NCBI GenBank assembly: GCA_963828465.1
Contig: CAWHEU010000022.1
Coordinates: 416,001 to 480,000, forward strand
DNA length: 64,000 nt
From: an uncultured Acidobacteriota bacterium
Lineage (GTDB): Bacteria; Actinomycetota; Acidimicrobiia; Spongiisociales; ZC4RG35
Reading direction: 5' to 3'
The position numbers were made by a program, and so were the translations under genes. The stretch's first letter is position 1. Each line of letters opens with the position of its first letter. The notes beneath the pieces are model-generated. The model saw nothing but the letters and a program-made list of their open reading frames with translations, was not told the origin of the DNA and did no database searches. This document shows, one piece after another, positions 653 through 17,638 of the stretch.

Positions 653-1960
653 ATGACGCAACCGACCCTCGAGACCATCTCCAACCTCGCCAAGAAGAGA
701 GGCTTCGTCTTTCAGGCCTCCGAGATCTATGGCGGGATTCGCTCTGCCTATGACTACGGGCCGCTCGGCGTGGAGTTGCTGAAAAACGTCAAAGACGAGT
801 GGTGGCGGGACATGGTCCAGCTTCGGGACGACGTGGTTGGAATTGATTCGGCCATCCTCCAGGCCCGCCAGGTGTGGCAAGCGTCGGGGCACGAGGAGGT
901 CTTCACCGATCCCTTGGTCGAGTGCCGCAACTGCAACGCACGGCACCGGCTCGACAAGCTCGACGACCCGAACACCTGCCCGACATGTGGGAAGTCAGGG
1001 ACGTTCACCGAGCCGAAGCCATTTCACCTCATGTTCCGCACACACATGGGCCCCGTAGATTCGGATGAGAACCTGATCTATCTCCGGCCGGAGACCGCGC
1101 AGGGGATCTTCACCAACTTCGAGAACATCCGCCGCACGAATCGTCTCAAACTCCCGTTCGGGATTGCCCAGGTGGGCAAGTCGTTCCGTAACGAGATCAC
1201 TCCGGGACAGTTCGTGTTCCGCACCCGAGAGTTCGAGCAGATGGAGATGGAGTATTTCGTCAGGCCCGAGGAGGTGGACGAATGGTTCGCCTACTGGCAG
1301 GAGCGACGCTTCGCCTGGTATCTCGGACTCGGCATGACCGAGTCCAATCTCCGCATCCGGCCCCATGACGAGGATGAGCTGAGTCACTATTCGGCCGCGA
1401 CCGTCGACGTCGAGTACAGATTTCCCTGGGACTGGGACGAACTGGAGGGGATCGCAAATCGCACCGACTTCGATCTGAAACAGCACTCGGAGCACTCCGG
1501 TGAGGACCTTCGCTACTTCGACTCTGAGACAAACGAGCGATTCTTCCCTTACGCGATCGAGCCGGCGGCCGGGGCCACCAGGACAACGTTCGCCTTCCTC
1601 ATCGACGCCTATGACGAGGAGAAGGTGAACGACGAGACGAGGACCGTTCTCCGCCTCCATCCCCGTCTGGCTCCATACAAGGTGGCCATCCTCCCGTTGT
1701 CCAAGAAGGAAGATCTGATCGAGCCTGCCGAGCGCATCGCCGCAGAGCTTCGGCAACGGTGGATGGTCGAGATGGACGTGACCCAGTCGATCGGGCGGCG
1801 CTACCGGCGACAGGACGAGATCGGCACCCCGTATGCCGTCACCGTGGACTTCGAGACCTTGGAAGATCAGGCGGTGACTGTCAGGGACCGGGACTCGATG
1901 AAACAGGACCGGGTCTCGATGGACCGTCTTGTGGATTACCTCGCCGAGCGTCTCGACTGA
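653..1960 (+). CDS. glyQS: Glycine--tRNA ligase, alpha2 type
   Basis: YDYGPLG, LRPETAQGIF, GKSFRNEI, FRTREFEQMEME, C-terminal anticodon-binding domain SIGRRYRRQDEIGTP. Confidence 0.96.
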   Translation: MTQPTLETISNLAKKRGFVFQASEIYGGIRSAYDYGPLGVELLKNVKDEWWRDMVQLRDDVVGIDSAILQARQVWQASGHEEVFTDPLVECRNCNARHRLDKLDDPNTCPTCGKSGTFTEPKPFHLMFRTHMGPVDSDENLIYLRPETAQGIFTNFENIRRTNRLKLPFGIAQVGKSFRNEITPGQFVFRTREFEQMEMEYFVRPEEVDEWFAYWQERRFAWYLGLGMTESNLRIRPHDEDELSHYSAATVDVEYRFPWDWDELEGIANRTDFDLKQHSEHSGEDLRYFDSETNERFFPYAIEPAAGATRTTFAFLIDAYDEEKVNDETRTVLRLHPRLAPYKVAILPLSKKEDLIEPAERIAAELRQRWMVEMDVTQSIGRRYRRQDEIGTPYAVTVDFETLEDQAVTVRDRDSMKQDRVSMDRLVDYLAERLD

Positions 1961-2034
1961 CTCCATCGCCGTCTGTAGAGAGTTCGTCCCCGCATCGTGA
2001 AGGAACGCCCGGTCGTACTTATGATCGGTCGGCC

Positions 2035-3771
2035 ATGGCAGAGCGAGGTGACATCGATCGGGTTCGGGAGTCCACCGACCTCGTCGACCTGATCTCCGAG
2101 GTCACCAAGGTCAAGCGCTCGGGCCGGAGCTTCATGGCGGTCTGCCCCTTCCACGAGGAGAAGACCCCTTCCATGTCGGTAGACCGTGCTCGGGGGCTCT
2201 ACCACTGCTTCGGGTGCGGCAAGGGAGGCGATGTCTTCAGCTTCGTGCAGGAGACCCAGGGTGTCGACTTCGCCGATGCCCTCGAGCTGCTCGCCAGGCG
2301 GGCAGGGATCACGCTGGTCCGGGACCCTGCCGACGCCCGGCAGAGGGGGCGTCGGGGGGAGGCAGTCGAGGCGCTGAAGAGGGCGATCGACGTCTATCAC
2401 GACCGATTGAAGAAGGCACCGGAGGCGGGGGCGGCCCGGGCCTATCTTCGCCAGCGTGGTTACGACGTCGGGATCATCGACGAATGGAAGCTCGGGTTCG
2501 CCGCAACCGACTGGGACACATTGACCAAGGAGCTCAAGGCGGGCGGGCTCGATGACCGGGTACTCGTCGATGCCGGTCTATCCCGTCGGGGCCGGCATGG
2601 CCTGTTCGATGTCTTCAGGGGCAGGCTCATGTTCCCCATCCACGACCTCCGTGGTGACGCCGTCGGGTTCGGTGGCCGGAAGATCGACGAGATCGATCGC
2701 AATGCCACGAACAATCCGGACGCGAAATACGTGAACTCGGCCGATTCGGTGGTCTATCACAAGGCTCAGGTCCTGTTCGGGCTGGATCGGGCCCGTCGAG
2801 AGATATCCGACGACCACCCGGCGGTGATCGTCGAGGGGTATACCGACGTGATCGCCATGCATCAGGCCGGGGTCAAGACTGCCGTTGCAACCTGTGGCAC
2901 CGCCCTCGGAGACGGTCACTTCGATCTCCTGCGGCGGTTCAGCGAGAAGGTGGTACTCGCATTCGACTCAGACGAAGCTGGGTCCAAAGCCGCGCTCAGG
3001 GGCGACGAGCTGGAGTCGCCATTTCGCCTCGATCTCGACTTGCGAGTGGCGGTGATGCCCGACGGGCTCGACCCGGCTGATCTGGTGCAGCAGGACCGAA
3101 AAGAGGAGCTGTTCTCGGCGGTAAACGGGGCGAGACCGCTCCTGGAGCGAAGGATCGAGCACGAGGTGAGCCGTCACGATCTGTCCGGACCCGAAGGCAG
3201 AGCGCGTGCCCTTCATGCCGCTGCCGCCCAGGTGCGCCGGGTCAACGATGGGATCGCCCGTCGTGAGTACGCACGGTATGTCGCCCGGCTGGTCGGCGTC
3301 GAGCTCGAGGCGGCTCAAGCTGCGATAGACGGCGACCGGGGCAGGCGCGGCCGCGCCGAGCCCGGAGTCGAGCGGCCGCTGGACCGGATCGAGTTAGAGC
3401 TCATGCGAGTGTTGATCGCGGACCCCTCATCGGTGGAAGGTGTGGTTGCCGAAGACTTCACGGATCAGCGGCTGAGGCAGGCGTTCTCCGCCCTCGATCT
3501 GTCGGCGGTGGTACCGGGTGAGCCGGTCGACATCTCGGAGGCCGGCGAGGAGGAGACGCGATCGTTGCTGCGCTCATTGGCCATGGACGACCGCCCGCTG
3601 TCGTCAGGTCCTGAGATTCTGTCTCGGGTGAAGGAGCGGAGGCTGGACGCCGAGATCGAGGATCTGCAGCGGATATTGGCTGGAATGGAGCCCGGAACCG
3701 ATGCTCATTCCGACAACCTCCGCCGCTTGATAGCTTTACAGCAGGAGAAGCGATCCTCCACCCGGATGTGA
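2035..3771 (+). CDS. dnaG: DNA primase
   Basis: CHC2 zinc finger [10 protein letters not shown]...[28 protein letters not shown] and FDSDEAG; start placed at ATG 2035 (MAERGDI). Confidence 0.95.
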
Positions 3772-4895
3772 ACGAAGAACTCAGCAAGGTCGTCGCCGCC
3801 CTGGTCAAGAGGGGCAAGCATCGTGGCTTTCTCACGATGGCAGAAGTCCAGCAAGAGCTGGAGGATGCCGAGGCGTCCGGAGAGGCATTCGAGGAAGTCG
3901 CTGACGCCCTCCGCTCCCAGGGAATCAAGCTCACGGAGGAGGGGCCGGGAGTCACAGAGGAGTTCGTCGAGGTCGGCCAGATTTCGGTCTCGGACCCGGT
4001 GCGCCTCTATCTCAACGAGATCGGTAGGTATCCCCTTCTCACCAGCCAGCAGGAAGTGGAGCTGGCGATGCACATGGAGGCGGGACATCGGGCGCAGGCC
4101 CGCCTCGACGAGGAGGGGCTGATCGATGAGGACCGGGCTGTCCTCGGGCATGAGATAGACATCGGCGACGCAGCCCAGAAGCAGCTCGTTCAGTCCAATC
4201 TTCGCCTGGTCGTGGCATTGGCCCGACGCTACGTCGGGCGCGGGATGGCCTTGCTCGACCTGATCCAGGAGGGCAACGTCGGTCTGATGCGTGCCGTGGA
4301 GCGGTTCGACTATCGAAGGGGCTTCAAGTTCTCCACCTACGCCACCTGGTGGATCCGTCAGGCGATCTCCAGGGCAATCGCCGATCAGGGCCGGACAATC
4401 CGTATGCCGATCCACGTCCTCGATTCGGTCAACAAGCTGACCCGGGCTCAGCGGGAGATGACCCAGACGATGGGACGTAAACCCACTCTCGACGAGCTGG
4501 CCTTTGAGCTCGACATCGAACCCGCTCGGGTCGCGGAGCTGCAGCGAATCGCCCAGGATACGGTCTCCCTGGAGACGCCGGTTGGCGAGGACGACGACGG
4601 CACTCTCGGTGACCTCGTCGAAGATCTCGAGTCAGATCGCCCAGCGGATGTCGCCACCTTCTCGTCTTTGCAGGATCAACTGGCCATGGCCCTGGAGGGT
4701 CTGAACGAGCGGGAGCGTGAGGTCTTGATCATGCGGTTCGGCCTGGCCGATGGGCGGATGCGCACCCTCGAGGAGGTCGGGTCCCATTTCAAGGTGACCC
4801 GTGAGCGGATCCGACAGCTGGAGACCAAGGCATTGGCCAAGCTCCGGCACCCCGACAAGTCACAGAAGCTGGAGGGGTTCCTGGAGAACTCCTGA
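3768..4895 (+). CDS. rpoD: Primary RNA polymerase sigma factor (RpoD/SigA)
   Basis: [46 protein letters not shown]...VTRERIRQ.E; follows dnaG with GTGA overlap. Confidence 0.93.
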
Positions 4896-4936
4896 TCGGC
4901 CGGGCACGTGGGTGCCCGTCGTGGCAATATCGGGCC

Positions 4937-5182
4937 ATGAGATTTAGATCCGGACTCGTGGTCGGCGCAGCCTTCGGGTATGTCTTGGGAACCCGTGCTG
5001 GGCGGCAGCGGTACGACCAGATCAAGCACTGGGCCGGTGAGGCGAGGAAACACCCTGCGGTGGCCCAACTGGCGAACCAGACCGTAGGCGCGGTCGATGC
5101 GGGACGCTATGTCGCCGCCACCGGGCTCACGTCGGTAGCCAAGGGGCTTCGCACGGTCGACACTCACTCAAGCTCTGAGTAG
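4937..5182 (+). CDS. Small YtxH-like membrane-anchored protein
   Basis: GAAFGYVLGTRAGRQRYDQI motif typical of actinobacterial YtxH-like proteins. Confidence 0.7.
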   Translation: MRFRSGLVVGAAFGYVLGTRAGRQRYDQIKHWAGEARKHPAVAQLANQTVGAVDAGRYVAATGLTSVAKGLRTVDTHSSSE

Positions 5183-5225
5183 ACAGAAGCCGACTGGTAC
5201 CCTGACCCCTGCCAGTCGGCAACCT

Positions 5226-5298
5226 TCCGCGGTAGCTCAATTGGTAGAGCAGTGGACTGTTAATCCATTGGTTGTAGGTTCGAGTCCTACCCGCGGAG
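5226..5298 (+). tRNA. tRNA-Asn(GTT)
   Basis: Cloverleaf TCCGCGG acceptor / TAGCTCAATTGGTAGAGC D-arm / TGGA-CTGTTAA-TCCA anticodon arm / GTAGGTTCGAGTCCTAC T-arm; CCA not encoded. Confidence 0.97.
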
Positions 5299-5538
5299 CA
5301 GCGACACCGACAATCCCTGGTTATACAAGGTGATTTCGGTAATCCCGCCTCCTTCCATGTTGCCCCACGTCGGAAAACTGGGCTGGGGGGCCCATTCCTG
5401 AGACCGCAAGCCGGGCTCGCCGTGGACAGGAAATTCAAAGAACTGGTCGTACGCGACCTCTGGCGATAGCTTTCATCGGTTAGCAACATTGGAAGGCTTG
5501 CCCTGGTTCAAGATCGGACCGTCGTCGAAGGATTCACC

Positions 5539-5970
5539 GTGTTCGTTCTCGGCAACGAACGGCGGCTCCGCCACGCTCTGAGCGCAACCCTGGGGTTGGA
5601 GACCGGCCGTGAAGCGGCAGCCGAAGCCCTGGCTTATGGCTGGGAGCATTGGGAACGGATCAGGGAAATGGAGAATTCGATCGGTTACCTCTATGTGGTG
5701 GGGCGAGACCGGGGGCGGAAGATGAGCCGCAACCGCCGAGTCGTCTTCCCGGATGTCATCGAGGATCGCACCCCGTGGGTGGAACCGGGACTGCCCCGAG
5801 CCTTGGCCGCCCTACCTGAGAGGGAGCGAGTGGTGGTTCTTCTGGTTCATGCTTATGGATGGGCGATGAGTGAGGTGGCCGAACTGCTCGAAGTCACCAA
5901 GAGCACGGTGCAGACCCACTCTGAAAGAGGCGTCAGGAAGCTCCGTCGCAAGTTAGGGGTGAGCCTGTGA
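5539..5970 (+). CDS. ECF (SigE-like) sigma-70 factor 1; true start probably upstream (CTG 5503?)
   Basis: Region 2 AEALAYGWEHW...GYLYVVG; region 4 ALAALPERERVVVLLVH..GW..SEVAELL..TKSTVQTH..RG..KLR. Confidence 0.88.
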   Translation: MFVLGNERRLRHALSATLGLETGREAAAEALAYGWEHWERIREMENSIGYLYVVGRDRGRKMSRNRRVVFPDVIEDRTPWVEPGLPRALAALPERERVVVLLVHAYGWAMSEVAELLEVTKSTVQTHSERGVRKLRRKLGVSL

Positions 5971-7115
5971 GCCGAGACATTCTGAGTCAGATCCGGGATT
6001 ACGGGTCGCAGATCGACGACGGCCAAGCCCCACTCACTGTGTCTGAAGTCATCGACCGGGCGAGTGTGGTGCAGACCATCCCTCAGGACCCGCGTGGCAT
6101 CCACCCCCGACGAACGAGACGTGGACTCAAAGCGTTCGCCTTTGCAGCCGGCCTCGTCGTCATGGTGGCGCTCACCATCGTCCTCGGCGCCACCCGCACA
6201 GATGTTCCGCCTGCGGTCACCACAATCCCTACGCCGACGACAACGCCGGTCATACCACCGACCACGGTCTCCGCGCCGGAGCCCGACCCGACGCCTTTGG
6301 TCAAGTGGCCCCAGTCGAGTCTGGAGGAGGTGCGGGAGGCACAGGAGCTCGCCGATGCTGGAGACCCCAACTACACGTGGCAGCTCGAACCGAACATGGC
6401 ATCGATCTTGATGGGCACGGAGCAGGTCGATACTCCCGAGATCCTCGCCCGATTGCTCCGGGAGGAGCTCGGTTGGGAGGAATTCGCCCTGGTCGCGATA
6501 CCAGGTAACGCCGCCGAGTCCGGGGGCATCCGGGCGGAGGGGCTCCAGTTCATCCGGTGTGAGCCGGGGAAGAGCAATCCCATCTGGCCGGATGATCCCC
6601 GGTTCGGCGGATGCGCACCAACCATCGACGACTTCCACTACGAGAGGGTGGAGATCTACGTGGCGCAGCCCGGCAAGCGGGGCCCGGAAGGGATCTGGGT
6701 GGCTTCCATGTGGGGGGAGGTCGATCCATTCGAGCAGGTCGCCCCACTCACCGACGCCGAGATCGCGGCGATCATGGAGCCCTTCCTCCAGGCAAGGATC
6801 GCCGGTGAGGGAGCCGAGCAGTATCTGGGCGATCTAAGCGCCGGGGACTGGCTAAGCAGCGGGTGGTTGGCGCCCGGGTTCCTGTATGCCACCAGCACCG
6901 GTGCCCCCTATGAGCGAGCCGAGTTCGAGGTCGTCAATGGGGGGGAATGGCCGGGTGGCTCGATGACCGTAAAGGTTCGGCTGTTCGCCGACGGGGGCCA
7001 GACCGTGGTGGAGCAGACCTTCTCGTTGTGGCGGGACGTGGCGGGCCGCTGGCCGCTCTATCACCACCAGGATGACCAGAGCACCGAGAACGGGCAGCCC
7101 CTGCCCAAGACCTGA
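5967..7115 (+). CDS. Single-TM protein, putative anti-sigma/sensor 1
   Basis: GTGA coupling to sigma 1; short N-terminal domain, TM helix AFAFAAGLVVMVALTIVLG, Pro/Thr linker, ectodomain homologous to 8291-9946. Confidence 0.8.
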   Translation: MSRDILSQIRDYGSQIDDGQAPLTVSEVIDRASVVQTIPQDPRGIHPRRTRRGLKAFAFAAGLVVMVALTIVLGATRTDVPPAVTTIPTPTTTPVIPPTTVSAPEPDPTPLVKWPQSSLEEVREAQELADAGDPNYTWQLEPNMASILMGTEQVDTPEILARLLREELGWEEFALVAIPGNAAESGGIRAEGLQFIRCEPGKSNPIWPDDPRFGGCAPTIDDFHYERVEIYVAQPGKRGPEGIWVASMWGEVDPFEQVAPLTDAEIAAIMEPFLQARIAGEGAEQYLGDLSAGDWLSSGWLAPGFLYATSTGAPYERAEFEVVNGGEWPGGSMTVKVRLFADGGQTVVEQTFSLWRDVAGRWPLYHHQDDQSTENGQPLPKT

Positions 7116-7196
7116 GGGACGGCGATGGGATCGATGGAAGGGGCCGGGATCAGGTCAGGATCGCGTCTTGGGTTTGGCCCTGGTGGTCGCGCTGAT

Positions 7197-7375
7197 GCAC
7201 TTCGCGTGTAGCCATTTGTGTAGCCGTACGTAGCAGGACAGGACAACACCAGACAACACGACTGGTGGAAATTCCCAGACAGGACAGCACCAAACATCAC
7301 GCACTAGGACTGGACGGACGGGGTGGGCGGGACTGTTAATCCATTGGTTGTAGGTTCGAGTCCTACCCGCGGAGC
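7197..7375 (+). repeat. attR-like site copy 1: 133-bp arm + 46-bp tRNA-Asn 3' core
   Basis: 165/179 identical to 13802-13980 without indels (hand alignment); core identical to tRNA 5254-5299. Confidence 0.92.
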
Positions 7376-7818
7376 CCAAATTCTTCCGCTCATTGTTGGC
7401 ATTCTTGGTTGTGGCCAGGGGCGAACAAGTGTTCACGTGTAGCCATTCTGTAGAGCAGAGGGGACCGAACCCACGAGGTGTGGTTCGCCACCGACTACTG
7501 CCGAACCCGACGAATCGACGCCATGACCGTCGCTGAGCCTGTCCAGGACTACCTGACCCGGGTGGGCGATGAGCGGCAACCGCCGACTCTGCCGTAACCC
7601 CAACCACCGGCCCAAGAGCCCGATACCCCGCCCGCGGATCCCGTCTGGCGCTATGGAGATTTTGCGAAATACGGGCCCCTGGAGTTTGGCCCGAAGACAG
7701 CCACATCTCCCTACCCGCCAGCGGGTCGGAGTTCCAGCTGCGATGAGGCTCAGGGCAGAAGCGTCGATTCAAAATGCTTGTGGTGTAAACCTCTCAGTCG
7801 GTGTCTTATGACAGTGAC

Positions 7819-8301
7819 ATGGTGAGGCCTGCTCTTTCCGAGGTGGTTGTCGGCCCAGGCTTTGTTGCGTTCGTCCGAGAGGTCGAACCCAAGCTCCGCC
7901 GAGCGCTTGTCGCCGGTTTTGGCATCGACATTGGGCGGGAGGCCACCGCTGAGGCGCTGGCTTATGGGTGGGAGCACTGGGAGAGGGTGCGTCATCTGGA
8001 GAATCCGGCTGGCTACCTGTATCGGGTCGGTCAGAGCTGGGCGAGACGGCGACCACTGCGTCGTGTCCTGTTTCCGGACTCGCCTGCCAGTAATGAGCCA
8101 TGGTTCGAGCCTGGTTTGGGCCCGGCATTGCGGGCCCTGAGTGCGAGGCAGCGACAAGCGGTGATCCTGGTCCACGCGATGGGTCTGAGCCAGGCGGAGA
8201 CCGCCGCGATGCTCGGACTGAAGCCGACTTCTGTTCAGAACCACCTGCAGCGGGGCCTCTCGCGGCTTCGTATAGCCCTGGGGGTTGACGATGAGACTTG
8301 A
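7819..8301 (+). CDS. ECF (SigE-like) sigma-70 factor 2
   Basis: FVAFVREVEPKLRRAL, AEALAYGWEHW, NPAGYLYRVG, region 4 ALRALSARQRQAVILVH..GLS.AETA..LG...SVQNHL.RGLSRLR. Confidence 0.9.
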   Translation: MVRPALSEVVVGPGFVAFVREVEPKLRRALVAGFGIDIGREATAEALAYGWEHWERVRHLENPAGYLYRVGQSWARRRPLRRVLFPDSPASNEPWFEPGLGPALRALSARQRQAVILVHAMGLSQAETAAMLGLKPTSVQNHLQRGLSRLRIALGVDDET

Positions 8302-9946
8302 AACACGACTCCTCGACTACGTCGATGAGATGGCACCGCCGGTCACCACCGAGGAGGCGATTGCTCGAAGTGAGTCGCCGAACCGTTTATGGGTGCGCGT
8401 GGCTTCCGCTACCAAGACCGAGGAGTCAGCGAAGACCCAGACCCCTGGCCCGAGGCGAGGCCTTGTCTGGGCGGTAGTGGTATTCGTGGTCATCCTCGCC
8501 GTGGGCGGGTTGTATTCCGCCTTCAGTGGCGATGACAGCCAGGTGGTCGATCAAACCACCGTCCCCACCCCGACCACGGTCCCCACAAGCGTATTGGACT
8601 CCATGTGGCCGCAGTCGAGTCTGGAGGAGGTGGAGGAGGCCCAAGAGCTCGCCGACGCTGGCGATCCCGATTTCACTTGGCAGCTCGATGCGACGCTGGC
8701 CGCCGGTGGCGATCCATGGGGAGCGGAGATATTCGCCCGGTTTATCGAAGATGAACTCGGCTGGGAGGCCTGGGAGGCCGCTGCTTTCGATGGATGGTTG
8801 GGCGGTGATGGGGGAGGCTACGAGCAGGTCCTCTTCATCCGTTGCGCGCCCGGCGAGACCAACCCATTGAGCCCGGTGTACTCGGAGGCGCCACCCGAGA
8901 TCGGCCAGTGTGCGCCGACGATCGACGAGCTCAGCTACGAGACGGTGGGTATCAGTGTGTCCCAGCCCGGCCTTCGGGGTCGTTCGGGCCTTTGGGTGGT
9001 GACTGGGTGGGAGACTCTCCAGCCCAAGTCCCCTGAGGCTCTCTGGGAACTCCTCACCCCAGACCTCTTGGCCGGGAGGCAGGTCGAGCAGGTCGTCCCG
9101 CCATCCGACACTGAATTAGCCGCTCTCCTGGACGGGTTCCTACAAGCCCGGGTGGACGGTGCAGGGGCCGAGCAGTATCTGCTCCACGAGCCAGAGGAGT
9201 GGATCTTTGAGGATGTGCCGCTCCTGTACGCCACGACCAGCGGCGCACCCTTTGAGCGCTTCGAGATCTTTCGGGTAAATGGCCCGCGCTGGCCGACCGG
9301 AAGGATTCTGGTCAGGGTACGGCTGTTCGCCGAGGGTGGGACCGTGGTCGAGCAGTTGTTCCATGTGGTCCGCAGTGATGGACACCTCGGCCTCGTGTAC
9401 GGATACTTCGACGACGTACTCCAGAGCACCGAAAACGGGCAGTCCGTGAACATCATCCTCGATGGCGAGGTGACCTTCGCCACGGCCCCCCCATGGAGAA
9501 GGTCAGTGATTGACCCTTCCGACGCTTCCGACACTTACATGAGATTTCAGGCGGGGAGAGAGGAATTCGTCGCGATCGGGACGGATCCCCCACCGGCCGC
9601 GGGGGACTGTGAGAACCCCTTGGCTCCTGCAGATGCCGAGGCGCTGGCTCGGAGCATCATGGCCAACCCCGACTTCGAGACCAACGGGACCGTCCCGGTG
9701 CGCATCGCGGGTCTCGACGGGCTGCAGATGGATGTGGGCATTAACCGCAACGTGCACTCCTGCTGGTTTCGGGGGTTCGGACCAGATCAACTCGCTCAGT
9801 GGCGGACGCGCCTGTACATGCTCGACTACCCCGGCGATTCGGCGCAGATCCTGATCATCGCGGTCATCGCCCCGGCGATCGACTTGGAGCGCGTGATCGA
9901 GGAGGCGACACCCATCGTGGAGTCCCTCGAGATCAATGCCCCCTGA
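8291..9946 (+). CDS. Single-TM protein, putative anti-sigma/sensor 2 with extra C-terminal domain
   Basis: Overlaps sigma 2 stop; TM LVWAVVVFVVILAVGGLY; PT linker; WPQSSLEEV..AQELADAGDP ectodomain shared with 5967-7115. Confidence 0.8.
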   Translation: MRLETRLLDYVDEMAPPVTTEEAIARSESPNRLWVRVASATKTEESAKTQTPGPRRGLVWAVVVFVVILAVGGLYSAFSGDDSQVVDQTTVPTPTTVPTSVLDSMWPQSSLEEVEEAQELADAGDPDFTWQLDATLAAGGDPWGAEIFARFIEDELGWEAWEAAAFDGWLGGDGGGYEQVLFIRCAPGETNPLSPVYSEAPPEIGQCAPTIDELSYETVGISVSQPGLRGRSGLWVVTGWETLQPKSPEALWELLTPDLLAGRQVEQVVPPSDTELAALLDGFLQARVDGAGAEQYLLHEPEEWIFEDVPLLYATTSGAPFERFEIFRVNGPRWPTGRILVRVRLFAEGGTVVEQLFHVVRSDGHLGLVYGYFDDVLQSTENGQSVNIILDGEVTFATAPPWRRSVIDPSDASDTYMRFQAGREEFVAIGTDPPPAAGDCENPLAPADAEALARSIMANPDFETNGTVPVRIAGLDGLQMDVGINRNVHSCWFRGFGPDQLAQWRTRLYMLDYPGDSAQILIIAVIAPAIDLERVIEEATPIVESLEINAP

Positions 9947-9967
9947 AGACGACGGAATGGAGAGGAC

Positions 9968-11209
9968 ATGAAGACACGGGCTGAATGGATTCTCGTTGTA
10001 GGGCTGATGCTTGGGCTCGTCGCCTGTGGATCTGATGCGAGCCCGGTATCAACCCGCTCCACGACAACGACCCCAAACACGTCATCGACATCGGGCCCAA
10101 CCACATCATCGACGACGGTCCCAACCACGGTTCCGACGACGCAGACATCGACTGTGCCGATTGAGCCTTTCCCAACTGCGGCGTTTGCAGCGATCAGCGA
10201 TGACCCCGTCGCAGAGGATGTTGCAGCGAAGTTCCTGGCGGCTCTGGATGGCATGGCCCCGGAAGGGGGGATCGCAGCCACCGTGATGACGCCCGAGGGA
10301 ACCTGGAGTGGGGCGGCGGGCACCGCCGACGGCGTGCACGATCTCGAGATCGACAGCCAGTTCGGCATCGCGAGCGGCACAAAGCCGATCATCGCGGCCC
10401 AGGTCATGCTGCTCGTGGAGGCGGGGGAGGTCTTGCTCGACGCACCCGCCACCGACTACCTCCCTGCCGATTTCACCTTCGACACCAACGGAGCAACGAT
10501 CCGCCAGCTCCTGAGTCATCGCTCCGGAATCCCGGACTGGTACGACGCGGAGAGCTTCGCGGTGGACAGGAGTCGGGTCTGGGAGCTCGACGAGATCCTC
10601 GCGCTTGTTCCGGCGGCTCGCCGTCCCGTCGGCTCCTTTGAATACGCCGACACCAACTACAACCTGCTCGGGCTCGTCATCGAGCACGTTCGCCAGCGAC
10701 CGCTAACCGACGTCCTGCGCGATGTAGTCCTTCGTGTCGAAGGGACGGAGCGGCTCATCTACCAGCCCGACGAGGCACCAACCGACCCGATGGCCATGCC
10801 GCGGGGCGAGTCGCGCGACGCGCTCAAGCAGGGCGGCGGCTACCTGCCATCTATCTCGGATACGATCGACGGAGCTGCGGGCGCCATGGCGTCAGATTCG
10901 ATCTCGCTCGCACGCTGGTGGCGGGCGTTCTGCGCCGGTGACATCGTTTCGGAAGCCTCGCTGACCGAGATGGCGGCGTTCTACGACAACGTCGCGTCCG
11001 AGTTGCCGGTCGATTATGGGCTCGGGCTGTTCAATCCCGCGGAGCTAGCGTCCGTCAAGGCCGTGGGGCACCTCGGTGCGAATTTCGGCTACAAGTCGTC
11101 GGCCGGGTGCCTGACCGAGGACCCCCTGATCTTCGTCGTGCTGACAAATCAGGACCTCAACAGCTTCGCTCTAGCCACTCCGCTGCTCATGGCGGCGCGC
11201 TCGGAGTGA
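9968..11209 (+). CDS. Lipoprotein serine hydrolase (beta-lactamase/DD-peptidase family)
   Basis: Lipobox LVAC, Thr-rich linker, F.IASGTK (SxxK), LLSHRSGI, FEYADTNY.LLG, GHLG. Confidence 0.88.
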   Translation: MKTRAEWILVVGLMLGLVACGSDASPVSTRSTTTTPNTSSTSGPTTSSTTVPTTVPTTQTSTVPIEPFPTAAFAAISDDPVAEDVAAKFLAALDGMAPEGGIAATVMTPEGTWSGAAGTADGVHDLEIDSQFGIASGTKPIIAAQVMLLVEAGEVLLDAPATDYLPADFTFDTNGATIRQLLSHRSGIPDWYDAESFAVDRSRVWELDEILALVPAARRPVGSFEYADTNYNLLGLVIEHVRQRPLTDVLRDVVLRVEGTERLIYQPDEAPTDPMAMPRGESRDALKQGGGYLPSISDTIDGAAGAMASDSISLARWWRAFCAGDIVSEASLTEMAAFYDNVASELPVDYGLGLFNPAELASVKAVGHLGANFGYKSSAGCLTEDPLIFVVLTNQDLNSFALATPLLMAARSE

Positions 11210-11367
11210 CCTGTAAACGACGTCCGCGAGCCATCATCCGCCGCGTGACTGTCCGATCCCGCCTCGACTCGGCGAGCGGGAACGCTGGTCGAAAAATGAC
11301 ACAACACCGATGGACAAGTCTCATCACGGTTTCCACCAAAACGACACATTGCGGGCCCGCCAATCGT

Positions 11368-11550
11368 TCAGTTGATGGAGCGTCGGGCGTCGGCGAGGAG
11401 ACGCCGGTAGACGACGTCGGAGATGCGCCGTTTCAGCGCCCGGATCGCTTCTTTGCTGGTCTTTCCCTCGGCGAGCTTCTTTGGTGGTAGTCCCGGCCTT
11501 CGCCGGGGTAGCGGAGCTGGGTGACTGCGGCGATGTGGTGGGCGTGATCG
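11368..11550 (-). pseudogene. IS110-family transposase C-terminal remnant (frameshifted)
   Basis: Two frames join to HIAAVTQLRYPGEGRDYH..KKLAEGKTSKEAIRALKRRISDVVYRRLLADA, typical of actinobacterial IS110 C-termini. Confidence 0.75.
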
Positions 11551-11684
11551 ATGCAAACAGTCTGGGATTCTGACTTCGGAGCCACTTTTCGCCTCCTGGG
11601 CGGAGGTCTCGGCGATGTCTGATTAGAAAAATCGTTGTAGCGCGATTCGTGTCTTCTGGCCTTTACTTGTCTAAAGGAGCAGAT

Positions 11685-12149
11685 GTGGTGCTTGCCCGAC
11701 ATCTCGACGAATCGTTCACGGCCTTCGTGAAAGAGACCGAACCTCGGCTGCGGCTTGCGTTGGTAGCAGCATTTGGCCAGGACCGGGGCCTTGACGCCAC
11801 CGCGGATGCTTTGGCTTACGCCTTCGAGAACTGGGATCGGATTGAGAGCATGGAGAACCCTGCTGGGTATCTCTATCGGGTCGGGAGAAGTCGCGCTCGC
11901 TTCGCGGGTATCCGCCCCAGGTTTGCCCCGGTGCCCGTTGAGGACGCTCCGAATGTGGAGCCGGGTCTGCCCTCCGCACTGCGAAGACTGTCGGAAAAGC
12001 AGCGGGTCGCAGTGGTCATGGTTCACGCCTATGGGTGGTCCCGTGAGGAGACGGCTTTGTTGATGGGCTTGACGATGTCCACTGTGGACACCCATCTGCA
12101 GCGCGGCTTGTCCAAATTACGAAATGTGTTGGGGGTGACCCATGCCTGA
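11685..12149 (+). CDS. ECF (SigE-like) sigma-70 factor 3
   Basis: SD AAGGAG before GTG 11685; FTAFVKETEPRLRLAL, DALAYAFENW, NPAGYLYRVG, region 4 STVDTHLQRGLSKLR. Confidence 0.9.
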   Translation: MVLARHLDESFTAFVKETEPRLRLALVAAFGQDRGLDATADALAYAFENWDRIESMENPAGYLYRVGRSRARFAGIRPRFAPVPVEDAPNVEPGLPSALRRLSEKQRVAVVMVHAYGWSREETALLMGLTMSTVDTHLQRGLSKLRNVLGVTHA

Positions 12150-13671
12150 TCTGAACACTCAGCTCCGTGAATATTTCGATGCCACCGCTCCGCCCTTGGA
12201 GGTCGAGGAGGTCGTCGGTGACGAGGTCTTGGTTCCTGGCGGGAGAAAGACGCGATCGAGGAGATGGACTGCCCCGGGCTGGGCATACGGGCTGGCAACC
12301 ATGGTGGTGGTCCTGGTGCTCATTTTGGGACTCGCCCTGCTGCTACCGGGCGGGAATAACGACGTGGTCGAGCCGACCCCGACAACGGTGGTTCCGGAGC
12401 CCGAGACCATGTCCGATTTCGAAGTGATCGAAGCTGGCGTGGCTGCCCTCTACTCCGGGGACGCCGAGCGGGCTGTCGAACTATTCGGGATCGAAGATTC
12501 CCCGGTTTGGAGATGGCAGGGCGGTGGTGATGACGAAGCTCAGATACGCGACGACGATCTGATACGCCAGGAGGCGGCCTATCAGGCGGCCATCGGCGGA
12601 CGGCTGACCCTCAATTGCACTGAACTGGTGAACACGCCCGGGATGTTCACCTGCAATGTGCCGTACCACAACGCTCTTACGGATGCAGTGGGCTACATCG
12701 ACTCCCCAGGGGACCAGATTGATGTCGTGGTCCAAGAAGGCGTGATCACCCAGTTTGCTCTTCCGAACGCCCTCGTCCAAGGGTTCGCCCACACGTTTCC
12801 TGAGCACAATTTCCTCCTGCGGACGGTGGTGTCCTTCCTCAGAGAGGAAGTCGAGGGCTCTGAAGGCTGCTGGGATTTTCCAACGGACTTCTTGCCGACC
12901 GTTATACGGACTCCCGACTGCGCCAACCTGATCATGGACAATCTCGACGACTGGGCCGCCTGGTACGAGGTGAACGAGCCGACGCCGACAACCCTGGTGA
13001 ACGAGCCGACGCCGACAACCCTGGTGAACGAGCCGACGCCGACCACGGTCCTAACAACCGTGCCCACCCCGACCACGGTCCTAACAACCGCCCCCGAAGT
13101 TGAGGCAACGTCCTCGGAAATATCGATTGCGCTCGCGTTCTTTGACGCCCGCAATGCCTACGACGTGGAGGCCGCCACAGCATTGTTCAACCCCGACGCC
13201 CACATTTACGGAGGGGACTTCATCACCGGCGTCGATATGTACCCGGCCCTCTTCGACTGGCTGCGCGCCACTGGCTGGCAGTGGATGGTTGGTGAGTGCT
13301 CTATGAAATCAGGGGACGCCAACACGGAGTGCGCCTATCACGTTGAGAACGCATGGAGTCGCGCCATTGGTATTCCGCCTGTGCCGGGTGTCATCGCCTT
13401 CGAGATCTGGGAAGGGGGGATGAGGTGGGTGCCTGATTTCGAGGTCGATCAGACCGATTTCAGTATCATGGGACGCGCCTCTGAACATCCTCAGTTCAAA
13501 AACGGTGAACTGGTCGAGGTGTGGGGGACGGTCACCGACTGGATCAGAGAAAATCACCCCACCGACGTGGAAGCGATGATCAGCCCGGACGGCTCTGCCC
13601 CAATTTTCGACGCCCGATCCATCGATCTATGGCGGATGTACACCCAAGAGTTCGTTGAGGCAGTCGGGTAG
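12142..13671 (+). CDS. Single-TM protein, putative anti-sigma/sensor 3 with two SnoaL/NTF2-like ectodomains
   Basis: Overlaps sigma 3 stop; TM MVVVLVLILGLALLL; IALAFFDARNAYDVEAATALFNPDA is SnoaL-like; the two domains are separated by a PT repeat. Confidence 0.75.
   Translation: MPDLNTQLREYFDATAPPLEVEEVVGDEVLVPGGRKTRSRRWTAPGWAYGLATMVVVLVLILGLALLLPGGNNDVVEPTPTTVVPEPETMSDFEVIEAGVAALYSGDAERAVELFGIEDSPVWRWQGGGDDEAQIRDDDLIRQEAAYQAAIGGRLTLNCTELVNTPGMFTCNVPYHNALTDAVGYIDSPGDQIDVVVQEGVITQFALPNALVQGFAHTFPEHNFLLRTVVSFLREEVEGSEGCWDFPTDFLPTVIRTPDCANLIMDNLDDWAAWYEVNEPTPTTLVNEPTPTTLVNEPTPTTVLTTVPTPTTVLTTAPEVEATSSEISIALAFFDARNAYDVEAATALFNPDAHIYGGDFITGVDMYPALFDWLRATGWQWMVGECSMKSGDANTECAYHVENAWSRAIGIPPVPGVIAFEIWEGGMRWVPDFEVDQTDFSIMGRASEHPQFKNGELVEVWGTVTDWIRENHPTDVEAMISPDGSAPIFDARSIDLWRMYTQEFVEAVG
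12969..13090 (+). repeat. In-frame tandem repeat (27-bp x ~2.8, then 22-bp x2 at 30-bp spacing) encoding a Pro/Thr linker
   Basis: GGTGAACGAGCCGACGCCGACAACCCT repeated, then CCGACCACGGTCCTAACAACCG twice. Confidence 0.92.
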
Positions 13672-13801
13672 TCATCCTCGACCCTGACTCACCGAAGGAT
13701 ATTGGGCTAAGAACGCCAGGTCAGAGCACCTCTCTCCATCTCGATTGGTAAGAACGTGTCAAGCACAGTGGCCCTCGTGGGGGCAGAGGCGCTATCTGTC
13801 C

Positions 13802-13980
13802 GCACTTCGTGTGTAGCCATTTGTGTAGCCGTACGTACCCGGACAGGACAACACCAGACAACACGACAGATCGAAATTCGTAGACAGGACAGCACCAAAC
13901 AACACGTACCGGGACTGGACAGACGAGGTGGGCGGGACTGTTAATCCATTGGTTGTAGGTTCGAGTCCTACCCGCGGAGC
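13802..13980 (+). repeat. attR-like site copy 2: 133-bp arm + 46-bp tRNA-Asn 3' core
   Basis: Direct repeat of 7197-7375; core 13935-13980 identical to the tRNA 3' half. Confidence 0.92.
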
Positions 13981-14028
13981 CGGGATGCGCGACCTGGTGC
14001 ATCCAAGAGGCCTCCCGCTAGACCGGGG

Positions 14029-14283
14029 GTGAACATGACAGAGACATTGGAACATAGAGACAAGGTCCAGCGCAGTTTGGAGGACATCCATAGGTCGCTG
14101 GTGGCGGTATCGATGAAGCTGGCACAGCTTCAACTCGATGATGAAATCGACACCGAGCTGGGTAACGCCCTGGAGGAACAAATGACGGCCCTGGCACCGC
14201 TCACAGACCGCCTCGAGAGTCTCGAATCCGAATTTCAGATGGAGACCAACCGCCTGACAAACGAGGGAGAACTCCAGGGTTGA
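14029..14283 (+). CDS. Small acidic coiled-coil hypothetical protein
   Basis: Heptad-like L/E-rich composition, natural-looking sequence. Confidence 0.55.
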   Translation: MNMTETLEHRDKVQRSLEDIHRSLVAVSMKLAQLQLDDEIDTELGNALEEQMTALAPLTDRLESLESEFQMETNRLTNEGELQG

Positions 14284-14456
14284 GGGTGTTTAGTTCGGCT
14301 CGCTCGCGGTAGTCCTTCACGCCCGACTGCATCCATCGGGCGGACACGCCCGGTCGGCCTTCCTCCACCCGCTTCGAGAGTACGCAAGAAGATTCCACGT
14401 TTCGCGTCGGCAAACAGTGGGAATAGTGAGGCGGACCCCGGATTCGAAGAGCGCTG

Positions 14457-14789: not shown

Positions 14790-14962
14790 GGCCGTCGATT
14801 CCCGGCGATTCGGCTTCTTCTGCACGCGCGGGGCAACGGGTCGCGAAAATCGACGTTGTCCGACGACTCAATTTCGACCGCCAACGCGACGATGACTCCT
14901 TTTAGAGGTGGGGGTTTGGGCATTTCAGACGGCGTTGGCGTCTGCTCGGTTCACCCTCCCGA

Positions 14963-15184: not shown

Positions 15185-15216
15185 ATCAAGTCGCGAAAAT
15201 TACCCCCGGTTCTGGT

Positions 15217-15805: not shown

Positions 15806-16065
15806 TTTGTCTGCCCACACTCAAGTTCGAGATGTAGTCCTGCCGATATGGGGACATGTTGGAGTGGACGGGGGACCGGAGAGGGCCCCTCCAACATGTC
15901 GCCCTCCGGGTGCCACCATCGCCCGGGGGGTCGGCACGTCCGACCCGAGGCTCGATGAAGTCCAGCTAGGACCCGATTACCTGCCATCCTGTCCCCTTCA
16001 CGGCCTGGTGTAGGGGCAGATTGCTGTCTCGCCACCACCACAGTCAGGTCGACGAGAACTCGAGC

Positions 16066-17235
16066 ATGCCCCCAAGCCACCCAGCGAACAAGAATCGCCC
16101 CAGGTCGATGCGTCCCTTTGTCGTGGTCGCGACGTTGTCCGCAGTGCTGACTGCGAGCCTGTCTACTGGTACAGCCCTGGGAATATCTCGCGCAGAGGTC
16201 GACGAGGCCTGTGCCGACTCCCAGGAGGCATACGACATCTATCGCGGGGCCCGTTCCGACTTCGAGGTGGCGGCGGTCGCACTCGATGAGGCGAACGCCG
16301 AACTCGACGATGCGGAGTACCAGGAACAGCGGATCCGCAACGCCTTTGAGGCACGCCAGGAAGAGAAGGTGGAGTTGTCGACCCGAGTCGAGTCTCAAGC
16401 AGTCGAGCTCTACATGCAGGCCGCCTCCGGACCGTCGATGGGGATGGTCAGCCTTTCTTCACCCAGCGAAGCGCTGACCGCCTACGAGTTCCTTCGTGCG
16501 AATGCAGACCAGAGCATGCAATCTGTGAATGATCTTGCCGCCGTTTCCTCTGAGCTGGATCGATTGGGAGTGACCCTCGAAGCGGCTGTCGCAGACCTGA
16601 CCACCGCCCGCGATGTGCAGCAAGAGCAAACGGCGGACCAAGAGGCTGCGATGACGTCGGCGCTCGGAGCGTATGACGATCTGAGCGATCGATGCAGGGA
16701 ACTGCAGGCCGCATACGAGGCCGAACAGGCCCGTCTGCGCGCAGAGGCGGAAGAGAGAGCTCGTCAGCGTGCGGCGGCGGCGTCCAGTGCGGGATCAGGT
16801 GGTTCCGGAGGTGGTTCCACCGGTCCGATCATCGGCGGCATCATCTGCCCGTTCAGCCCGGGTCGGACGCATTTCAGCAACTCTTGGGGCGCCTCGCGAT
16901 CGGGTGGGAGGTCTCACAAGGGGACCGACATGATGGCTCCCCATGGCGAGCCCATATACGCCGTTGCCAGTGGCAGCATCAGCACGGGGAGCAGTGGCTT
17001 GGGGGGCATGACGATCTGGCTCTCCACCTCCATCGGGGCTTTCTACTACGCCCACCTCAGCGGGTTCGCGGTCGGGGACGGTGCCCGGGTCAGTCAGGGT
17101 GACTTGATCGCGTACAACGGAAGTACGGGGAACGCCTCCGCTAGCGCCCCCCACCTCCATTTCGAGATCCACCCTGGTGGACGAGGCTCCAGCGCCGTCA
17201 ATCCGTACAACGCGGTGGCCTCGGTCTGCTTCTGA
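16066..17235 (+). CDS. Secreted coiled-coil M23 peptidase (EnvC/MepM-like murein hydrolase); start uncertain (16066 or 16108)
   Basis: Signal peptide, long coiled coil, HKGTD (HxxxD), YYAHLS, HLHFE. Confidence 0.9.
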
Positions 17236-17250
17236 CCCGGCCTCGGCGTT

Positions 17251-17439
17251 CTATTTCCTCCGCGCTCCTCGCCAAAGCAACGTGCCACCGGCCAGGACGG
17301 CGACCGCACCCAGCACCACCCACAGCGGGTCGCCGGTCATGAAACTCTGCGGGGCGAACTCGATGTCGAGACCCTGCAAGATCCAGATGACACCGATGAT
17401 GCCGAGAATGATCCCGAGCGCCTTGCTCAAGTCCCGCAT
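17251..17439 (-). CDS. Small two-TM membrane protein
   Basis: GVIWILQG...SFMTG..W motif and hydrophobic helices. Confidence 0.7.
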   Translation of the reverse strand: MRDLSKALGIILGIIGVIWILQGLDIEFAPQSFMTGDPLWVVLGAVAVLAGGTLLWRGARRK

Positions 17440-17494
17440 CGCTCGAACATAGCTCTTGACTCCGACACCTGCGCCAGCTGATAATCTTGCTCAC

Positions 17495-17569
17495 ATGAAG
17501 ACGGACCCGGCTTCGATCACGAGCGCCACGCCTCGGCGTTTCTTCGGGTTCGTCTATTTCGGCGCCTAG
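17495..17569 (+). promoter_or_regulatory. Phe/Tyr-rich leader peptide MKTDPASITSATPRRFFGFVYFGA (attenuator)
   Basis: 4 Phe + 1 Tyr clustered at the 3' end; TTGACT-N18-GATAAT upstream; 17529-17538 is complementary to the downstream SD region 17622-17631. Confidence 0.8.
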
Positions 17570-17638
17570 CGCCGACTCACCCCACCCCCGCGTTACTCCG
17601 TCCCTATCCACTCTTCAACCGCGCCGAGGCGAACACTC

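Follow-up and report, generated by a model that had tools for sequence, protein, structure and literature searches.

Integrase-less cassettes with att-type ends at a tRNA-Asn hotspot of uncultured soil Acidimicrobiia

Introduction

Tandem accretion at tRNA genes is known from the streptococcal systems of ICEs (integrative and conjugative elements) and IMEs (integrative and mobilizable elements), where cis-mobilizable elements (CIMEs) are defined as decay products of ICEs and IMEs (PMC5704250). Additive flexible genomic islands at tRNA genes have been described for Alteromonas (PMC4898812), in a report whose main text has 0 occurrences of the word 'integrase'. The tycheposons of Prochlorococcus were found by way of their integrases; 910 of 937 carry a tyrosine recombinase, and many come with replication modules (10.1101/2020.12.28.424599). 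These three sources are used in excerpt, and our comparisons with them hold within that scope. Here we describe a stretch of 64 kb, hereafter the window, from contig CAWHEU010000022.1 of the metagenome-assembled genome (MAG) GCA_963828465.1 (G000), an uncultured member of the Acidimicrobiia. In the window the 3' half of a tRNA-Asn gene recurs twice and bounds two units that carry sigma factor genes and no integrase gene. We consider it probable, at roughly 0.6, that these units belong to a family of helper-dependent, integrase-less cassettes at a tRNA-Asn hotspot, and that the two copies in the window are partly eroded.

Results

Two units bounded by exact copies of a tRNA half

The window, whose positions serve as coordinates throughout, holds an intact tRNA-Asn(GTT) gene at 5226-5299(+), called by ARAGORN with Rfam in agreement. 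The 46-nt 3' half of this gene (5254-5299), hereafter the core, is repeated with 0 mismatches at 7330-7375 and 13935-13980. No further match at three or fewer mismatches exists in the 64 kb, and none is expected (100 shuffles). Each of the two copies is preceded by a shared arm, so that the 180 nt of arm plus core at 7197-7376 and 13802-13981 are 92% identical without a gap, at spacings of 2076 and 6605; for the 133-nt arm alone, identity is 89.47% (119/133). A direct repeat of the 3' part of the tRNA thus stands at the distal end of both inserts (46/46 each time), as it does in a tRNA-targeted integrative element. A tblastn search of 5300-13980 with six integrases that occupy this locus in relatives detected no tyrosine-recombinase similarity. 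The original prediction, made from the letters of the window, had reported the exact recurrence of the tRNA half, the 133-bp arm with 119 identities and no indels, unit sizes of 2,076 and 6,605 bp, the lack of an intact integrase, and coupled pairs of an extracytoplasmic function (ECF) sigma factor and a protein with a single transmembrane (TM) segment, one pair in unit 1 and two in unit 2; a string search and the analyses below reproduce each of these, including the three pairs. The parts of the array are as follows.

5226..5299 (+): tRNA-Asn(GTT); its 3' 46 nt (5254-5299) are the putative att core, attL side of unit 1
5300..7375 (+): unit 1, 2,076 bp; ecf1, its single-TM partner, P arm and core
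7207..7329 (+): class-1 P arm, copy 1; tandem TGTAGCC at 7207 and 7219, 24-nt direct repeats at 7237-7260 and 7278-7301
7330..7375 (+): core copy 2, putative attR of unit 1 and attL of unit 2; 46/46
7376..13980 (+): unit 2, 6,605 bp; ecf2, as2 and a serine hydrolase gene, ecf3 and as3, P arm and core
7432..7455 (+): putative P' arm-type site of unit 2; TTCACGTGTAGCCATT copies the arm's TTCGCGTGTAGCCATT, with TGTAGCC 63 nt past the core
13812..13934 (+): class-1 P arm, copy 2; same module as copy 1
13935..13980 (+): core copy 3, putative last attR of the array; 46/46

The arm resembles one half of a phage attachment site

An alignment of 20 copies of the arm, found by BLAST in 13 genomes, shows a conserved module that begins sharply at TGTAGCC (7207 and 13812 in the window), about 123 nt 5' of the core; the sequence further 5' is unrelated except between orthologous cassettes. 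Within it lie a tandem pair, TGTAGCCATTTG TGTAGCCGTAC, and two direct repeats of 24 nt, GACAGGACAnCACCAnACAnCACG, at a distance of 41 nt from each other. We refer to arms of this family as class 1. On the other side of the core, at the left end of unit 2, the first 16 nt of the arm (7201-7216) return at 94% identity at 7432-7447, 57 nt past the core. The flanks of the repeats, which had been described as unrelated, are indeed so for the most part, and this 16-nt copy is the part of that description that does not stand. Across assemblies, TGTAGCC, often in tandem at 11-nt spacing, lies 60-77 nt past the core at the left ends of 15 of the 26 distinct class-1 units, and within 110 nt of the terminal cores of the genus loci it occurs 0 times in 12. 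Elsewhere in the 64 kb, outside the arms and P' sites, the + strand has one occurrence of the motif and the - strand four. As such, the core is flanked on both sides by repeated putative arm-type sites, with a TGTAGCC tandem in P and, in P', TGTAGCC at +60-77, which is the layout of an attP.

The only Rfam match in 4800-17000 is the tRNA, and both arms, on both strands, fold worse than their own shuffles (z +1.57 to +2.21); the idea of the arm as an RNA element was rejected on these two results. Because neither strand folds as well as shuffled sequence, the arm is best regarded as a set of putative protein-binding direct repeats, not of hairpin sites. A 28-nt arm-like stretch on another contig of the same genome (G000:C26:87919), conserved in contig C8 of the congener G029 and outside any array, was treated as unrelated.

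In two viral contigs of IMG/VR (L142 and L143) the identical 46-nt core is part of an attP. L142 has no tRNA call by ARAGORN and L143 only a 69-nt tRNA-Asn, which we read from its sequence as P arm plus core. In both contigs tandem TGTAAC lies about 119 nt before the core, paired direct repeats lie nearer to it, and tandem TGTAAC recurs at about +84; a Phage_integrase gene of 380-384 aa ends 0.4-0.9 kb upstream of the core, just 5' of the P arm. The class-1 arm thus appears to be the same kind of site with another arm-type word, and we take it to be a genuine attP arm that belongs to a tyrosine integrase of phage type, the viral match being the strongest evidence. Together with the exact cores and the conserved arm, these viral sites of like architecture support the reading of the repeats as att-type products of tRNA-targeted site-specific integration, in line with the earlier proposal that they are duplications left by a tyrosine integrase.

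Units without integrases carry general accessory genes

In the loci collected here, complete core-to-core units number 54, of which 40 are distinct, and 26 of the distinct ones end in a class-1 arm. Compared by tblastn with eight tyrosine recombinases, none of these 26 showed integrase similarity. The units are small (0.9-6.6 kb), and many have the P and P' sites directly beside the cargo. A cassette typically consists of a P' site, one to five cargo genes, a P arm of about 123 nt and the 46-nt tRNA 3' half; with 240-425 nt of upstream non-coding DNA, cassettes are not promoterless.

An ECF sigma gene is present in 8 of the 26, and two of these eight units are 97% identical to each other. Thirty further open reading frames (ORFs) were scanned from 21 units, 17 of class 1 and 4 whose closing arm is labelled 'other'. 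Pfam families were matched by 22 of the 30: beta-lactamase family, adenylate cyclase, DUF4386, luciferase-like, GNAT, glyoxalase, SLH, LuxR-AAA, PEP-utilising enzyme, amidohydrolase, methyltransferase, APH(6)-like kinase, epimerase, DUF4389 and sigma regions. None of the 30 matched a recombinase, transposase, replication, conjugation, phage or plasmid family. Since the 22 matches fall in such varied families and ECF genes in only 8 of 26 units, the cargo is one of general accessory genes rich in regulators and sensors, and not specifically of sigma modules. The original prediction of sensor-sigma cassettes was therefore overstated, the remaining units holding ordinary accessory genes.

The same tRNA gene holds different cassettes in nearly every congener

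Tallies over genus genomes take in the unpublished assemblies G018, G027 and G028 (arm distribution, PF00589 counts, the search with an integrase fragment of contig C157, and the search for the ecf genes in congeners); the arm-distribution tally also takes in the unpublished G039 and G050, and the family-level search for the viral integrase G086. A BLASTN comparison of the arm with this genome and its relatives, as had been suggested, placed the arm in 12 of 31 genus genomes and in one of the 30 other relatives searched; pattern scans gave 36 stretches of species-representative genomes (mostly titled Acidimicrobiia MAGs) and 40 metagenome stretches. Full-length copies of arm plus core number 84, 65 of them distinct, all in Acidimicrobiia-type assemblies, and most copies of the same genus are 84-94% identical to that of the window. 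G000 itself has the full arm and core at the two window sites only, and a motif scan of viral contigs gave 0 matches to the arm.

Around the variable part, the gene order is conserved: dnaG, rpoD, tRNA-Asn, the variable part, sometimes a small ORF, two 88-nt repeats, an M23 peptidase gene and an aromatic-biosynthesis fusion gene. In the window the two flanks are:

1759..4895 (+): conserved upstream flank; dnaG primase (1759-3771) and the primary-type sigma-70 gene rpoD (3768-4895)
16021..19672 (+): conserved downstream flank; M23 peptidase (16021-17235) and fused chorismate mutase/prephenate dehydratase/DAHP synthase (17639-19672), from Pfam and NCBIfam

The dnaG assignment rests on NCBIfam TIGR01391 (388.6 bits) and that of the gene at 3768-4895 on Pfam Sigma70 r1.1-r4, and synteny holds for both across the genus loci. 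Nearly every genome has a variable part of its own, the exception being G015 and G029, which have a near-identical first unit. The site is empty in G019, which has a single core, with the M23 gene about 960 nt further on. In G015 and in G029 the site holds one unit of 944 bp, whose sole gene is a 168-aa ORF without family. The insert is an aldo/keto reductase unit in G003; in G030 a beta-propeller unit precedes an ecf3 unit, in G021 a Kelch unit precedes the left end of an ecf3 unit, and G023 combines an adenylate cyclase with an ecf3 unit. G026 holds a LysR unit, G012 an as2-like gene, and G001 an inverted ECF/partner pair. Even the relatives closest to G000 by rpoD (G030, G012 and G021, 94.5-96.0% nt identity) have at most the ecf3 cassette in common with it. 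The comparison that had been proposed, of cassette number, order and cargo across relatives, thus gave a positive result, with an empty site in addition, and the tRNA-Asn beside dnaG-rpoD is an integration hotspot in this Acidimicrobiia genus.

A metagenome contig (L115) mirrors the locus of G030, its units matching at 97% identity or more across 85% or more of their length. It bears on the explanation that the array is an assembly artefact of a repeat: comparable arrays are present in many independent assemblies, and this contig reproduces the G030 arrangement. The related explanation, that one ECF/anti-sigma unit with its att site was duplicated in tandem in situ, draws on the fact that the three sigma/partner pairs of the window are paralogues and, at the thresholds used, the sole members of their subfamily in the genome. 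Their proteins are only 44-57% identical, against 89% DNA identity for the arms and 46/46 for the cores, and single-cassette orthologues are found at other array positions in other species. We find duplication or artefact very hard to credit.

Several further features of the locus were observed in relatives. In G008:C58 (L048 7155-7247) a second core lies 2 nt past the tRNA and closes a near-empty unit of 47 nt; in L061 (795-1179) two diverged copies of arm plus core stand 215 nt apart, again near-empty; and L060 and L075 have a 912-bp unit in common. The G004 bin holds two full-length tRNA-Asn copies on different contigs (L035, which is C102, and L036, which is C54). One has the standard T-stem and adjoins rpoD, the other a compensatory GC pair (GCAGG/CCTGC) that recurs in the distal core of its ecf3 unit, so that the pair would reflect either two strains in one bin or a transferred block of tRNA and cassette. 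An inverted, degenerate stretch like a tRNA 3' half is found at about 380-440 of L038 (G006:C9) and 5115-5145 of L034 (G030), just past a shared beta-propeller gene and inside a 1,260-nt block that the two genomes share. It is 79% identical to the Asn core in reverse and has a TCT anticodon-like loop, which hints that the beta-propeller cargo may formerly have been at another tRNA in the opposite orientation. As for the two 88-nt repeats of the window, they lie at 15214-15301 and 15718-15805 (90% identity, 504 nt apart), 5' of the M23 peptidase gene, and are kept in at least seven congeners. Each resembles TTGACC-N17-TATAGT followed by a GAAGCCCC...GGGGCTTC hairpin, without an Rfam match at E<=0.01, and the pair may represent two small RNAs or leader elements. 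A tRNA-Met(CAT) gene is at 58982-59057.

Near-identical units in divergent species end at the core

The ecf3 cassette starts within 3-4 nt of a core in three relatives, namely directly after the full-length tRNA-Asn in G004:C102, after the beta-propeller unit in G030 and after the Kelch unit in G021. Its starting at a core behind different neighbours means that different cassettes were inserted between the tRNA and a shared older cassette. In G015 and G029 the 944-bp unit is 98.1% identical, with rpoD at 86.3% and dnaG at 80.7%; the block of high identity runs from about 45 nt 5' of the tRNA to 3 nt beyond the distal core, and no homology is found further on. Likewise, the 3,059-bp ecf3 unit of G030 and G004:C102 is 97.0% identical in a block that reaches from core to core, with no homology past the distal core, and rpoD is 81.9% identical as measured on G004:C54, another contig of that bin. 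The block shared by G006 and G030 comprises 1,260 nt at 99.0%. Because near-identical, core-bounded units stand beside rpoD genes that are 14-18% divergent, integrase-less units have moved between species recently, with their boundaries at the att core. With variable order and cargo in addition, this agrees with the original proposal of independent insertions of one element family.

Could such movement be the work of homologous recombination? Arrays might be exchanged after DNA uptake, the tRNA, cores and arms serving as portable homology, with no integrase involved today. Every cassette is indeed flanked by the identical 46 nt and an arm of about 123 nt, for which the 84-94% identity given above applies in most copies of the genus, and four arm-bearing genomes show no dedicated integrase. 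Mosaics exist as well: within the ecf3 cassette identity between G000 and G023 is mosaic, and so are the partner genes (as2/as1 in L075, an as3/as2 hybrid in G030). However, in the pairs G015/G029 and G004/G030 identity breaks off within a few nt of the distal core at rpoD identities of 82-86%, which would need crossovers within 46-74 nt on each side, and the arm-type repeats on both sides of the core as well as the viral attP match would be left unexplained. We regard shuffling by homologous recombination as quite improbable.

Several integrases at the locus, none found beside a class-1 arm

A PF00589 search of the whole G000 assembly (a 92% complete MAG) returned two genes only, XerC- and XerD-like, on other contigs, that score 102-105 bits against an integron-integrase model with a cut-off of 265; no PF00239 serine recombinase was found in it. 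The arm-bearing G015, G023 and G029 (76-88% complete) likewise have two PF00589 genes each. When six integrases from the locus and the two Xer proteins were compared by tblastn with the 36 genome and 40 metagenome stretches, no cognate integrase emerged; the only matches were a fragment on contig C157 of G009, considered below, and the G013-type integrase, which lies in a unit that is not of class 1. A family-level search with the viral integrase found homologues of at most 41% identity, none adjoining a class-1 arm.

At the tRNA-Asn itself, integrases of several kinds are present in relatives. A 364-aa integrase (class 2) directly follows the tRNA in G009 and G022, and is frameshifted in G025, inside an 8.8-kb element that ends in a second arm family; a class-2-type element with its integrase about 2 kb before the distal core is seen also in the unpublished G027, the single source for this statement. 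G006 has a Xer-like integrase of 296 aa after the tRNA, and G013 another integrase in its first unit. Including the viral type, at least four integrase lineages target tRNA-Asn, and the helper could be one of these or a relative as yet unseen. A lone integrase fragment of 48 aa, 44% identical to the C-terminal part of the G025 class-2 integrase, was seen at C22:512635-512778 of G000, about 32 kb past the end of the window; neither the PF00589 search nor the genus search with the C157 fragment reported it.

Among sequencing runs queried through Logan contigs, 20 of 23 hold part of 5000-14500, at most 0.34 of the sampled words. The four runs examined hold short pieces from related populations, among them a joint of as2-like to as1-like sequence (8582->6271) on one contig of run X4. 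Joints at core ends (5300->7844 in X1 and 7376->11589 in X4) have sides of at most 30 letters and were set aside as unusable for excision, circles or absence.

Probable fusion and erosion in the window

The following features bear on the state of the two window units.

11544..11648 (+): upstream region of ecf3; homology to the ecf3 cassette in relatives does not set in until about 175 nt past their core
11371..11560 (-): frameshifted remnant of about 60 aa, like a transposase C-terminus; 28-aa tblastn matches, weak
13991..14281 (+): older hotspot layer; in G006 inside an older cassette closed by a decayed arm plus core, the att site being gone in the window

Upstream of ecf3, where a core and P' site would be expected, 11207-11650 shows no trace of arm or core. 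Unit 2 is therefore probably a fusion of [ecf2-as2-hydrolase] with [ecf3-as3] through loss of an internal att site, as judged by comparison with the intact ecf3 cassettes. The remnant on the - strand gives 28-aa tblastn matches (69-75%) under coding sequences (CDSs) labelled 'transposase' on two actinobacterial plasmids, and no match in Pfam or NCBIfam. An IS110 label for it is tentative and draws on these 28-aa matches only. At its left end unit 1 has no TGTAGCC P' motif, its P arm being present, so that it looks partly decayed, with the P' site lost, and the start of its sigma gene is doubtful; unit 2 keeps its P' site, a complete P arm and the core. Since unit 2 is probably fused and unit 1 is without a P' site, both window units may now be fixed. 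The locus is shaped by insertion and erosion both.

This makes the alternative already named in the original prediction, that the units are decayed islands, partly right for the window copy. In its general form it holds that the units are eroded remnants of an integrase-bearing island, phage or ICE, in other words classical CIMEs, immobile and inherited vertically or with their neighbours. Apart from the missing att site and possible transposase remnant upstream of ecf3, the lost P' site of unit 1 and the lack of a canonical ecf1 start where homology sets in, it can point to the cassette-internal character in G006 of the sequence after the last core, to a cargo gene that follows an integrase in G006 and is held without one in unit 1 of G030, and to the published model of CIME decay followed by accretion for such tandems (PMC5704250, as excerpted). 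Against it stand the complete lack of kept integrase similarity in the 26 distinct class-1 units, the 0 of 30 further cargo ORFs that match phage, plasmid or conjugation families, and the small size of units in which P and P' often directly adjoin the cargo. Moreover, near-identical core-bounded units across 14-18% rpoD divergence require transfer after the integrase was lost, or without one. As a general account we thus judge decay unlikely, and continue to favour helper-dependent cassettes, of which the window holds two partly eroded examples.

Cargo of the window units

5539..5970 (+): ecf1, ECF-type sigma; Sigma70_r4_2; first ATG/GTG/TTG at 5539
5967..7115 (+): as1, 382-aa partner of ecf1; one predicted TM (about 52-80), Pro/Thr linker, extracytoplasmic domain
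7801..8301 (+): ecf2, ECF-type sigma; Sigma70_r4_2; NCBIfam SigE-family below cut-off
8285..9946 (+): as2, 553-aa partner of ecf2; single TM by prediction
9968..11209 (+): secreted serine hydrolase of the beta-lactamase family PF00144; Pfam E 3.3e-39, signal-like N-terminus
11649..12149 (+): ecf3, ECF-type sigma (Pfam); cassette genes of G030, G004 and G023 match it at 92-97% aa identity
12142..13671 (+): as3, 509-aa partner of ecf3; single TM by prediction

Region 4 is found by Pfam in all three sigma genes and region 2 in none, and the SigE-family model aligns over 127-142 residues at 59-71 bits, under its cut-off of 141.55. The ecf1 frame is open and homologous to ecf2 from 5470, upstream of the first canonical start. 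The partner genes overlap the ends of the sigma genes by 4-17 nt and encode a single predicted TM at about residues 43-83, followed by a Pro/Thr linker. The partner proteins match no family of Pfam or NCBIfam, anti-sigma families included; as1, which is 44-47% identical to as2, is presumed to be an anti-sigma factor or sensor. The three pairs are paralogous at 44-57% protein identity. At the thresholds used, the subfamily is confined to this array in G000, and in congeners it is patchy and also found on other contigs. An ecf2 homologue at 95% aa identity lies in a 2,062-bp arm-flanked unit of L075 (2482-4543), beside a partner gene with an as2-like N-terminus and an as1-like C-terminus; in L034 of G030 (4045-7096, oriented) a 97% ecf3 stands beside a partner with an as3-like N-terminus and an as2/as1-like C-terminus. 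From these mosaics, sensor domains seem to have been swapped between cassettes. A guessed ECF promoter, GAAAC-N15-19-CGTC, is not enriched (2 found, 3.9 expected).

A second cassette system in the same genome

G000 also contains a second arm family, of about 100 nt, joined to the 3' half of tRNA-Arg(CCT). At C25:106033-115500 (L163 2033-11499) five copies of arm plus core follow this tRNA and delimit units of 0.77-3.5 kb, with SRPBCC, alpha/beta-hydrolase, MarR, cupin, LapA-domain and other small genes as cargo; the 10 ORFs scanned in this array include no recombinase family. Three more copies lie in a 16.7-kb island at C26:90444-107192 (L164), which extends from tRNA-Arg(CCG) to a repeat of the 3' half of that gene. 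The motif of this family, TTCATTGAC/TTCATTGGC, occurs in the arm and just past the cores, and the arm is also found in G029:C8. On this comparison, integrase-less arm-flanked cassettes look like a general feature of the lineage. Their presence as a second family in the same genome therefore raises the odds of a dedicated helper-dependent strategy.

Discussion

A number of observations weigh against the reading of helper-dependent cassettes. An integrase gene beside the same arm was looked for, and none stands beside any class-1 arm; the nearest is broken, a frameshifted fragment on G009:C157 that lies 1.6 kb from an arm with IS30 in between, and whose closest intact homologues (71%) in the genus search are at a tRNA-Gly/Cys/Val cluster without the TGTAGCC motif. 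The genomes being MAGs, a resident integrase or helper could have been missed in binning. In G006 a Xer-like integrase precedes the beta-propeller gene that unit 1 of G030 has without an integrase, which for that one unit fits the decay of an integrase-bearing element. Exact P' motifs are absent from the left ends of 11 of the 26 distinct class-1 units, unit 1 of the window included. The near-invariance of TGTAGCC is true by construction in the 76 loci that were derived by pattern, so that only the 20 copies found by BLAST test it. Lastly, at the orthologous cassette ends of G000 and G023 (window 13802-13934 against L027 14971-15103) the 137 nt 5' of the arm are 98.5% identical, and the arm, at about 11 differences in about 100 nt by our own count on the 20-copy alignment, is more diverged than this adjacent stretch. 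The arm thus appears to evolve or recombine differently from its neighbourhood.

So how would such a cassette reach the tRNA? In the mechanism that we envisage, it would enter as a circle, whose attP (P arm, core, P') would recombine with the anticodon-loop/3' half of the tRNA. The catalyst would be a phage-type tyrosine integrase with an arm-binding domain that reads the TGTAGCC repeats, encoded by neither the cassette nor the assembly, and supplied in trans by a helper, either a phage or an integrative element with the same tRNA as its target. Each new cassette would enter beside the tRNA and displace the older ones distally, where ordinary deletion would later erode them. The mobilisation in trans, the circular intermediate, the identity of the helper and activity in the present day are what we infer, from the anatomy of the ends and from the distribution of the units. 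A wider proposition is that soil Acidimicrobiia keep tRNA-anchored arrays of recombinase-free 'att-site parasites' that hijack the integrases of phages or integrative elements directed at the same tRNA, as a general strategy that sustains an integron-like, helper-dependent pool of regulatory and accessory genes between species; we put this forward tentatively, as possible rather than probable.

If the cassettes are mobilised in trans, they would be a compact means, free of any recombinase gene, by which species of an abundant uncultured soil lineage exchange accessory genes at a site enclosed by housekeeping genes. The cargo spans whole sensor-sigma modules as well as adenylate cyclases and hydrolases. 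Because the ECF/partner family is found only inside the array in G000, regulatory capacity itself appears to be part of the flexible, exchangeable gene pool. The system offers a defined target (46-nt core, 123-nt arm and P' site) for the question of how non-autonomous elements exploit phage and ICE integrases, and the cassettes may throw light on the filling of 'additive' tRNA islands where a genome has yielded no integrase.

How, then, does this locus compare with known systems? CIMEs and additive tRNA islands come closest. A minimal, integrase-free, cross-species cassette family with one conserved P arm and a P' site was not found in the portions of PMC5704250, PMC4898812 and 10.1101/2020.12.28.424599 drawn on here, the literature on Acidimicrobiia not having been searched. 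Like CIMEs, the units keep attL and attR flanks without integration or transfer genes, stand in tandem at a tRNA 3' end and would need the integrase of another element. Unlike CIMEs as these excerpts present them, the 26 distinct units have yielded no ICE, IME or phage remnants and no parent element, and the units are much smaller, with one arm family over 65 distinct copies and an uncultured soil Acidimicrobiia host. With the additive islands of Alteromonas they share variable cassettes at the same tRNA site across species, partial tRNA repeats, near-identical cassettes in divergent species and a mismatch with the core phylogeny, whereas a conserved long arm with arm-type repeats and a systematic absence of integrases are not described in the text of PMC4898812 to which we refer. 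Tycheposons, too, are tRNA-targeted cargo, with tandem integrations split by partial tRNAs, newer ones pushing older ones inward, and degenerate remnants; in contrast, the cassettes described here encode neither an integrase nor a replication module. The temperate-phage attP/integrase modules of L142 and L143 have the identical core, tandem hexamer/heptamer repeats that lie at about -119 in P and recur in P', and paired direct repeats between these and the core; they differ in the word TGTAAC instead of TGTAGCC and in having their own integrase directly upstream of the P arm.

The original prediction of an integron-like array is not supported. The likeness to integrons lies in a tandem, same-orientation array of small cassettes that end in a recombination site and carry swappable cargo. 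However, there is no intI or other integrase linked to the array, the site is a tRNA half with a direct-repeat arm that lacks an attC-like hairpin fold, and a cassette can comprise several genes with non-coding DNA upstream of them, and so is not promoterless. As far as the excerpted sources go, stacking at a tRNA, partial tRNA repeats and integrase-less att-flanked derivatives are thus known, and what is new here is a variant of these, and not an integron.

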